Positions 17,548 to 18,000 of a stretch of 64,000 nucleotides of DNA are shown in pieces. This DNA comes from Escherichia phage P1. The position numbers and the translations under genes are program-made. Where the stretch lies: sequence record MH445380.1; one strand, given 5' to 3'. A model generated the notes under the pieces. It saw only the letters and a list, made by a program, of their open reading frames with translations. It made no database searches and was not told the origin of the DNA. Each line of letters starts with the position of its first letter. The first letter of the stretch is position 1.

Positions 17548-17670
17548 TACAATCGTTGCGGGTGCTTGAGGCTATCTGCTTCAGGCATTACCCGAAAAGC
17601 AGATAGAAGAAAGCCCCAGATAACATTACGCGTCCTGCAAGACGCTTAACATTAATCTGAGGCCATATCT

Positions 17671-17877
17671 ATGCTTAGCATACGTAGATTAGCCTCTTAC
17701 CGACCAAAAGGTCAAGGAGAAGCAGGCTATGAAGCAGCAAAAAGCGATGTTAATCGCTCTGATCGTCATCTGTTTAACCGTCATTGTGACGGCACTGGTA
17801 ACGAGGAAAGACCTCTGCGAGGTACGAATCCGAACCGGCCAGACGGAGGTCACTGTCTTCACAGCCTACGAATCTGA
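17671..17877 (+). CDS. mok-like overlapping frame of the hok locus
   Basis: 68-aa frame starting upstream of, and overlapping almost all of, the hok frame, as in hok/mok/sok loci. Confidence 0.4.
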   Translation: MLSIRRLASYRPKGQGEAGYEAAKSDVNRSDRHLFNRHCDGTGNEERPLRGTNPNRPDGGHCLHSLRI

Positions 17878-17884
17878 AAGGTAA
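17729..17884 (+). CDS. hok: Hok/Gef-family type I toxin (51 aa; below the ORF-track threshold)
   Basis: Hand translation: MKQQKAMLIALIVICLTVIVTALVTRKDLCEVRIRTGQTEVTVFTAYESER, a clear Hok/Gef signature (TM helix then RKxLCE..GxEV..YE). Confidence 0.85.
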   Translation: MKQQKAMLIALIVICLTVIVTALVTRKDLCEVRIRTGQTEVTVFTAYESER

Positions 17885-17960
17885 GAGACCTGGTGGGGAG
17901 AGATCCCCGCCACTCTTAGTGTGTCAGGTATCCTCAATGCACCCTTTCATCTCCAAATAA

Positions 17961-17984
17961 AAAAGCTCCCGAAGGAGCTTTAAA
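17961..17984. terminator. Rho-independent terminator between convergent units
   Basis: AAAAAAGCTCCCGAAGGAGCTTT: GC stem with A-run on one side and T-run on the other; lies between the hok locus and the end of the minus-strand structural gene at 18001. Confidence 0.6.
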
Positions 17985-18000
17985 ATACAAGGGATGACTC

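Follow-up and report, generated by a model that had tools for sequence, protein, structure and literature searches.

A predicted hok/mok/sok addiction cassette in the repL-bplB hypervariable region of a P1-like phage-plasmid

The 64,000-nucleotide stretch of Escherichia phage P1 DNA analyzed here (MH445380.1; hereafter the window) very probably carries an intact hok/mok/sok cassette of the HokD/HokW subgroup in the repL-bplB hypervariable region, with R1-type regulation that would confer plasmid addiction. Judged by its sequence, the locus is a complete type I toxin-antitoxin (TA) cassette, which bears out the initial annotation, and its most likely function is post-segregational killing that stabilizes the plasmid prophage alongside phd/doc. 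The cassette is an ordinary, already annotated member of the best-studied type I TA family, and its sequence, gene call, and family are all public; hokW, mokW, and sokW were annotated in phage 933W decades ago. A literature search found no explicit description of hok on P1-like phage-plasmids or at the P1 site. Two candidate papers speak of hok in connection with other plasmids only, a comparison of P1-like elements lists the variable region without hok (PMC9603915), and a Hok survey mentions neither P1 nor phage-plasmids (bioRxiv 10.1101/2025.08.07.668861). According to the same survey, phages and prophages are enriched for hok, and HokD is experimentally toxic, as are 41 further homologs.

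Over the 8 kb compared, the window shows 100% identity to MH422554.1 ("Punavirus P1," from human infant faeces), and a window coordinate equals the MH422554.1 coordinate minus 28549. Membership among P1-like elements is evident from synteny and identity across c4/icd/ant, kilA-repL, the tail genes, parAB, and phd/doc, together with a C4 RNA detected by Rfam.

Toxin gene, mok leader, and predicted mRNA fold

The hok gene lies on the plus strand at 17729 to 17884, exactly where the initial annotation had placed a 51-aa toxin of the Hok/Gef family. Its product matches the Pfam domain HOK_GEF (PF01848) over the entire profile (positions 1 to 42 of 42; E = 2.4e-22; 78.7 bits against a cutoff of 22) and PHROG 251, "MokW-like host killing" (E = 4.9e-32), and corresponds to WP_001313475.1, named "type I toxin-antitoxin system toxin HokD" by RefSeq/PGAP. 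The NCBIfam Hok models also match it, at scores under their own curated cutoffs (49.5 versus 73 bits). The protein is 92% identical to HokW of 933W and 42% identical to R1 Hok; the R1 query was validated by its 100% matches to genes annotated as Hok in over 2,600 plasmids. The gene had been described as missing from the open reading frame track, which is true because 51 aa falls below the usual 60-aa listing threshold, but the coding sequence is annotated both in RefSeq and in MH422554.1, where it is mislabeled "MokW." No hairpin presenting a UACG editing motif at Tyr47, whose codon occupies 17867 to 17869, appeared in the local fold prediction.

Overlapping hok is the mok (modulation of killing) leader frame of 68 codons (17671 to 17877, plus strand), found in the open reading frame list and matched by PHROG 37205 (E = 8e-21); searches of Mok against Pfam and NCBIfam gave no matches. 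The initial annotation was exact on this frame as well. The mok ATG precedes the hok ATG by 58 nt and opens a different frame; the offset matches that of plasmid R1, where the mok ATG occupies positions 116 to 118 and the hok ATG positions 174 to 176 (PMC9841398). It has its own Shine-Dalgarno (SD) sequence, GAGG, read from the sequence at 17659 to 17662, 8 nt 5' of the start codon, which aligns with the mok SD GAGG described for R1 (PMC9841398). The SD of hok, AAGGAG (17714 to 17719), lies 9 nt 5' of its ATG and is invariant in the alignments with 933W and R1-type loci. The frame relation between mok and hok differs within the family (57 or 58 nt), which is consistent with mok's translation, and not the Mok protein, being what matters.

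The leader was recovered by the Rfam search that the initial annotation had proposed for the sok/hok families. The model RF01794 ("sok") matches 17560 to 17734 over its full length (1 to 157 of 157), scoring 114.9 bits where the gathering score is 59 (E = 2e-25). In an R1-type IncFII locus, too, the model matches the hok-sense strand, as it does in 933W (1513 to 1687), where sokW is annotated on the opposite strand (1563 to 1633). What RF01794 models is thus the leader of the hok mRNA, beginning with the 5' tac and ending at the hok start codon, and Sok is a partial reverse complement of it; the plus-strand match is a property of the model and is not informative on the orientation of Sok. Given the Pfam, PHROG, and Rfam scores of toxin and leader, the locus is real far beyond chance. 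A reading of hok and mok as chance open reading frames was ruled out by the Pfam and Rfam E-values.

Regulatory elements were placed by alignment with hokW/sokW of 933W and with an R1-type locus, using the R1 landmarks of Le Rhun et al. (PMC9841398), and every regulatory element described for R1 has a candidate counterpart in the window. The predicted hok promoter (17526 to 17553, plus strand), obtained from a promoter scan, combines a -35 box TAGAAA, a 16-nt spacer, and a TG-extended -10 box TACAAT that aligns with TAGAAT of 933W hokW. It would start transcription at about 17560, the first position of the Rfam match, and yield a full-length mok-hok mRNA of about 425 nt (17560 to 17984) whose 5' end aligns with the R1-type GGCGCUUGAGG. 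At this end lies the translational activator element tac, GGGUGCUUGAGG (17560 to 17571), which pairs in the predicted fold with the fold-back inhibitory element fbi, CCUCAAUGCACCC (17932 to 17944), through 12 bp and one bulge (-21.0 kcal/mol). The fbi begins 47 nt past the hok stop codon, within the family range of about 40 to 58 nt. Between them, the ucb or anti-SD box GCCCC (17613 to 17617) is paired with 17659 to 17663 in the predicted folds, and the AAAGCCCC of the ucb region is invariant among the window, R1-type, and 933W sequences in the alignment. The downstream complementary box dcb, UAGCCUCUUAC (17690 to 17700), is likewise conserved in all three; it overlaps the sok -10 box on the opposite strand and is complementary to the mok SD region (GAGGC), with a duplex of -9.3 kcal/mol. 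In R1 a sok promoter mutation falls inside dcb (PMC9841398). Downstream of hok, a stem-loop in the 3' untranslated region (UTR; 17888 to 17929; ΔG, -19.5 kcal/mol; z, -2.3) would protect the processed, truncated hok mRNA at its 3' end, following the R1 model (PMC9841398).

The minimum-energy fold of the full-length mRNA (17560 to 17988; ΔG, -165.7 kcal/mol; z, -8.8) pairs tac at 17560 to 17571 with fbi at 17932 to 17944 and the mok SD at 17659 to 17663 with ucb at 17613 to 17617, so that the predicted structure is the closed, untranslatable state described for R1. In the fold of the 3'-truncated mRNA (17560 to 17930), the 5' end (17560 to 17572) refolds onto 17578 to 17593. The tac and ucb elements are complementary (-10.7 kcal/mol), but the open conformation, in which tac and ucb form a stem and the mok SD is free, was not reproduced by minimum-energy folding because the truncated fold retains the SD/ucb stem; the switch would be a kinetic one.

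The long-distance pairing is also supported by covariation. A single pattern scan of genome contigs gave 60 matches adjoining a Hok homolog, 47 of them non-redundant, and in nearly all of the 60 the 12 to 14 nt at the presumptive 5' end complement a site 40 to 58 nt past the hok stop codon. Across the 47 non-redundant loci, drawn from diverse Enterobacterales, double compensatory changes are found at 4 of the 12 tac/fbi pairs: pair 4 (U-A in 31, C-G in 12), pair 7 (U-A in 29, C-G in 4), pair 9 (G-C in 36, A-U in 6), and pair 12 (G-C in 21, A-U in 17). The mean duplex between the 5' and 3' UTRs is -19.9 kcal/mol for cognate partners, -16.8 when the partners are mismatched, and -11.4 when the UTRs are shuffled. 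Conservation of TAGCCTCTTAC and AAGGAG in this set is circular because both were fixed in the scan pattern (TAGCCTCTTAC...AAGGAG), and what counts as evidence is tac and fbi, together with the four final bases of the -10 box and the part of the -35 box beyond TTG.

The 3' end of the hok mRNA is probably a bidirectional hairpin at 17962 to 17981, identified by terminator scan and folding, and a weak one. The hairpin lies 3' of bplB inside the P1-homologous DNA that resumes at 17959, outside the imported cassette. The initial annotation had reported a terminator at 17961 to 17984; the hairpin itself is there, but the scan scores a terminator for the minus strand (the bplB side) only, where TTTTTTATTT trails it, whereas in the hok orientation only three U's follow.

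The predicted Sok antisense gene and comparison with 933W and R1

A cis-encoded antisense gene, sok, with its own promoter and terminator appears to be present on the minus strand. The predicted Sok RNA of about 75 nt (about 17605 to about 17679) is equivalent by alignment to the annotated sokW of 933W. It would begin with a single-stranded 5' tail of about 9 to 15 nt over the mok start region, continue in a long hairpin, and finish with a UUUCUUCU tail (ΔG, -34.4 kcal/mol; z, -6.0). A sok-like antisense RNA had been expected on this strand around 17650 to 17725; the predicted transcript, ending at about 17605, reaches further left.

The sok promoter (17686 to 17715, minus strand) has a -35 box TTGACC (17715 to 17710), an 18-nt spacer, and a -10 box TAATCT (17691 to 17686). 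A generic promoter scan left it below threshold and uncalled, and the initial annotation, which had noticed TTGACC, regarded the promoter as weak on account of a poor -10 box. The TTGACC stands, but the promoter is not anomalously weak, since TAnnCT is the norm of the family, including R1-type loci. The pattern TTGnCn/TAnnCT occurs at the matching position in the 47 hok loci, R1-like ones (TTGCGC...TATCCT) included, and TAnnCT is seen in Escherichia, Kluyvera, Photorhabdus, Pantoea, Erwinia, Klebsiella, and other genera.

The closest relatives of the cassette are hokW/mokW/sokW of phage 933W (AF125520) and the hok loci of lambdoid, Stx, and Rac prophages, with 87 to 91% DNA identity over exactly 17548 to 17944, a block that extends from the hok -10 box to the end of fbi. 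In 933W, tac, ucb, dcb, fbi, and the Sok hairpin are as in the window. The annotated mokW, however, is in frame with hok (57 nt) whereas mok of the window is out of frame (58 nt), owing to a 1-nt indel in the region of the hok SD and the sok -35 box. The Sok 5' tail and its target are the most diverged part of the leader between the two, pointing to a Sok specificity of its own. Differences are also found at the 3' end and the terminator, and the host of the window cassette is a plasmid prophage whereas that of 933W is an integrated lambdoid prophage.

The experimentally defined paradigm, hok/mok/sok (parB) of plasmid R1, has the same architecture and the same order of elements: tac, ucb, mok SD, mok ATG, dcb over the sok -10 box, hok SD, stem-loop, fbi, and terminator hairpin. 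RF01794 matches both the R1-type locus and the window, although the R1 Hok protein is only 42% identical. The hairpin of Sok and the ucb-SD region is about 19 nt longer in the window than in R1, whose Sok is 64 nt long, as against about 75 nt here. The sok -35 box TTGACC of the window is nearer to consensus than TTGCGC of R1, and the spacers measure 18 and 17 nt, respectively.

Genomic site and alternative alleles

The cassette occupies a swapped segment of 693 bp (17266 to 17958; blastn against NC_005856) that comprises orf81 and hok/mok/sok and stands in place of the 1,826-bp rlfA-rlfB-pmgF of reference P1 (NC_005856). The flanks, up to 17265 and from 17959, are 96 to 98% identical to NC_005856, and the left junction cuts into the C1 operator Orlf/Op55, leaving ATTGCTCTAAT at 17255 to 17265. 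This repL-bplB interval is "variable region 5" of P1-like phage-plasmids, a published hypervariable region (PMC9603915). Reference P1, where the initial annotation expected no hok, has none: the blastn comparison shows rlfA-rlfB-pmgF there, and the comparison with P1 and P7 downstream of repL that the annotation proposed finds rlfA-rlfB-pmgF in both. It had further suggested that the locus may be cargo; a fitter description is an alternative allele, one of several at a known hypervariable region. We rejected recent insertion of cargo into the P1 backbone in favor of allelic replacement at a shared hotspot, because 1,826 bp were replaced rather than added to, the right junction at 17958/17959 is common to all alleles, and decayed, toxin-less derivatives exist.

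The other gene of the segment, orf81 (17302 to 17547, plus strand; WP_001702262.1 in PGAP), encodes 81 aa with two transmembrane segments. It matches PHROG 3772 over its full length (E = 2.6e-53), occurs only in P1-like phages, and has no matches in Pfam or NCBIfam; it shares the allele with the hok cassette and lies outside the TA system. A 108-aa reading (17221 to 17547) was rejected, as the 81-aa form from the ATG at 17302 corresponds to PHROG 3772 positions 1 to 81 and to the PGAP call.

PLSDB contains 262 plasmids that cover at least 80% of a 1-kb query across both junctions, and 235 of 5,426 complete Escherichia coli genomes do so as well. Most matches have at least 99% identity, with the allele conserved at this level in 236 plasmid records, and the hosts include E. 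fergusonii, Salmonella, and Kluyvera. Only 98 PLSDB plasmids cover at least 80% of the equivalent reference-P1 allele, so that the hok allele is the commoner of the two and reference P1, the minority form, does not represent the site: among sequenced P1-like plasmids whose allele here is defined, the majority have a type I TA system as well as phd/doc. A type I system besides phd/doc is relevant to the stability of these elements and to attempts at curing them, resistance genes being carried by some; beyond such housekeeping the cassette matters little.

The location directly 3' of repL on the same strand, with the left junction inside the C1 operator Orlf, raises the thought that the cassette is used in lytic growth. 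Read-through from the C1-controlled kilA-repL operon would produce 5'-extended hok transcripts free of the tac/fbi lock, and Hok would cause late membrane damage in the manner of a holin or of host shut-off. We give this hardly any credence. A terminator-like hairpin (17504 to 17519) precedes the hok promoter, the cassette has a promoter of its own, its borders at 17548 and 17944 equal those in unrelated lambdoid contexts, and phages with hok-less alleles, reference P1 among them, are fully lytic competent.

Three further P1-like elements, 673R5, RCS47, and SJ46, match orf81 and the hok leader of the window up to 17691 to 17694 and have no toxin. The common part comprises the hok promoter, tac, ucb, and the body of Sok, as well as the sok -10 box in 673R5. 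Beyond the breakpoint they carry an unrelated minus-strand open reading frame of 171 to 210 aa, for which Pfam gave no matches, and they rejoin the window at the 17959 junction. The leader of 673R5 still gives a full-length RF01794 match (89.7 bits), and that of SJ46 is eroded, with tac destroyed. The simplest reading of these sequences is that the three derivatives descend from the complete hok/sok allele, whose toxin half was replaced later. The shared breakpoint pattern is the sole basis for a more elaborate and very improbable scenario, in which the repL-bplB site is an arena of competition: a hok/sok carrier would be hard to displace, and toxin-less donors of Sok would displace an incompatible hok-positive P1 without killing the host ("anti-addiction"). 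The leader and Sok remnants may just as well be debris in the course of decay, which is what the eroded leader of SJ46 suggests.

Proposed mechanism and function

The elements, their complementarity and covariation, and the distribution of the allele are seen in the sequences, whereas transcription, processing, toxicity, and a role in killing are inferred along the lines established for R1 (PMC9841398). By homology with R1, the weak constitutive promoter at 17526 to 17553 would produce a stable mRNA of about 425 nt, in which the 5' tac (17560 to 17571) pairs with the 3' fbi (17932 to 17944) and ucb buries the mok SD, leaving mok and hok untranslated. Slow trimming from the 3' end would take off fbi, allowing the 5' end to refold and exposing the mok SD and the Sok target. 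As long as the plasmid is present, the unstable Sok would pair with the mok initiation region, blocking translation of mok and the coupled translation of hok, and the duplex would be cleaved by RNase III. After plasmid loss Sok would decay first, the processed mRNA would be translated, and the 51-aa Hok would damage the inner membrane and kill the cell.

The element also encodes phd (59555 to 59776) and doc (59776 to 60156) by annotation, so that it carries two addiction-type modules, in agreement with the earlier claim of at least two addiction systems. Like hok/sok, phd/doc of P1 presumably acts by killing cured cells; unlike it, phd/doc is a type II pair of protein antitoxin and toxin, unrelated in mechanism and locus. 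Together the two modules would stabilize the low-copy P1 prophage.

An intact hok sequence does not guarantee killing, because chromosomal hok loci of E. coli failed to mediate it. According to the earlier work cited in the Hok survey (10.1101/2025.08.07.668861), these loci showed no post-segregational killing, and hokA, hokB, and hokC failed at killing or at activation by rifampicin. The cassette might be an evolutionary passenger, intact in sequence and functionally silent, that hitch-hikes on a successful P1 lineage. The weak plus-strand terminator agrees with such silence, as does the loss of the toxin half from 673R5, RCS47, and SJ46 without obvious harm to the phage. We nevertheless consider it decidedly unlikely, as the locus shows neither an IS insertion nor a frameshift nor a disrupted regulatory element, the full set of R1-defined elements is there and complementary, and the hok allele is the commoner one at the site (262 versus 98 PLSDB records). 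Loci of the K-12 type are reportedly inactivated by IS elements or by leader truncation as in hokD/relF, an account that Pedersen and Gerdes are said to have given in 1999, and inactivation of this kind is not seen in the window locus.

Phage defense by abortive infection or exclusion is an unlikely, though not negligible, primary role for the cassette. A superinfecting phage that stops host transcription would cause Sok to decay and Hok to be made, and the cell would die before the invader completes its cycle. Such a role would protect the population of P1 lysogens and is compatible with addiction. The nearest relatives of the cassette (87 to 91%) reside in integrated lambdoid, Stx, and Rac prophages, which need no plasmid-type addiction, and this makes a defense role plausible and non-exclusive; P1 moreover already has phd/doc for addiction. 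The enrichment of hok in phages and prophages points the same way, and a defense role has been reported and discussed, but hok was not enriched near defense systems (10.1101/2025.08.07.668861), and the window shows no link to a defense island, the neighbors of the cassette being repL, the 81-aa open reading frame, and tail genes. Post-segregational killing alongside phd/doc remains our preferred reading.

Three features of the public records can mislead when such loci are annotated: the GenBank hok coding sequence bears the name "MokW," RefSeq lists neither Sok nor mok, and the Rfam model called "sok" reports the hok-sense strand.

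Annotation of the hok, mok, and Sok components

The Rfam model RF01794 ("sok antitoxin") matches the window at 17560-17734 on the plus strand and the hokW/sokW locus of phage 933W at 1513-1687. Verification against the annotated sokW of 933W established that this model is built in the hok-sense orientation: a match marks the strand of the hok mRNA leader, not the strand encoding Sok. This orientation can mislead automated annotation pipelines. GenBank record MH422554.1, identical to the window over the 8 kb compared, labels the hok coding sequence (window 17729-17884, corresponding to 46278-46433 of the record) as "MokW." Neither this record nor RefSeq carries an annotation for Sok or for the actual mok frame (17671-17877). 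Elsewhere in the window, Rfam detected the C4 antisense RNA of P1 immunity, together with its a1/b1 target, as well as three tRNA genes (13898-14103, 34403-34553, and 36361-36433), as expected in a P1-like genome.

Sok recognition region and a putative small stem in the hok leader

Comparison with the 933W locus and a nonredundant set of 47 hok loci placed the highest variability of the otherwise conserved leader at 17665-17685, around the mok start, in the segment complementary to the 5′ tail of the predicted Sok. At the sequence level, this pattern is consistent with divergence in Sok specificity. Most E. coli contain chromosomal and prophage hok loci, and such divergence would prevent cross-talk with them. 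Some part of a 1-kb query spanning both junctions was matched in 4,748 of 5,426 complete E. coli genomes, and the matching places were mostly chromosomal, with 80 to 95% identity. Between the dcb element (17690-17700) and the hok Shine-Dalgarno sequence (17714-17719) lies a hairpin, GACC-AAAA-GGUC (17702-17713), that falls, on the other strand, within the spacer and −35 element of the sok promoter. Compensatory variation of this hairpin occurs across hok loci (GCCUUUCGGC, GACCCGAAGGUC, and CUUUUUGUCAG, among others), which suggests that a small stem is conserved at this position in the hok mRNA.

Leader remnants in toxin-less relatives and the left junction

Three P1 relatives retain the hok leader/Sok region together with the neighboring orf81 (17302-17547, plus strand), an 81-aa ORF predicted to contain two TM segments. 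The segments concerned in 673R5 (3536-3730), RCS47 (4610-4869), and SJ46 (4063-4315) are equivalent to window 17432-17694. All three relatives lack the sok −35 element, the hok coding sequence, and the 3′ element fbi (window 17932-17944); the place of these elements is occupied by an unrelated minus-strand ORF of 171 to 210 aa, for which a Pfam search returned no match. The rejoining junction is identical in the three relatives and corresponds to window position 17959. The leader of 673R5 still scores 89.7 bits with RF01794, and that of SJ46 is decayed. These remnants represent either orphan Sok, with a possible anti-addiction role, or debris.

Matches to orf81 came only from P1-like phages, and the SJ46 copy shows 44% identity. 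This ORF, unannotated in MH422554.1 and listed by PGAP as hypothetical protein WP_001702262.1, has a full-length match to PHROG 3772 (unknown function) and contains a terminator-like hairpin at its 3′ end (17504-17519). The left recombination junction relative to reference P1 is located within the C1 repressor operator Orlf/Op55 (17255-17271), of which the initial 11 bases (ATTGCTCTAAT) are kept and the remainder is replaced.

Tyr47 codon and tandem hok cassettes

The Tyr47 codon of hok, UAC, is followed by G (17867-17870), forming the UACG motif used by TadA. A-to-I editing of hokD mRNA is reported to recode this Tyr to Cys, the partner of a conserved Cys (preprint 10.1101/2025.08.07.668861); the conserved residue in the Hok of the window is Cys30. 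Folding predicted no stable local hairpin presenting the UACG motif at Tyr47. Among other hok loci, Photorhabdus chromosomes (L007, L015, and L038) carry two to four hok/sok cassettes in tandem arrays spaced by approximately 0.5 to 1 kb, in which some hok ORFs are truncated (42 aa).
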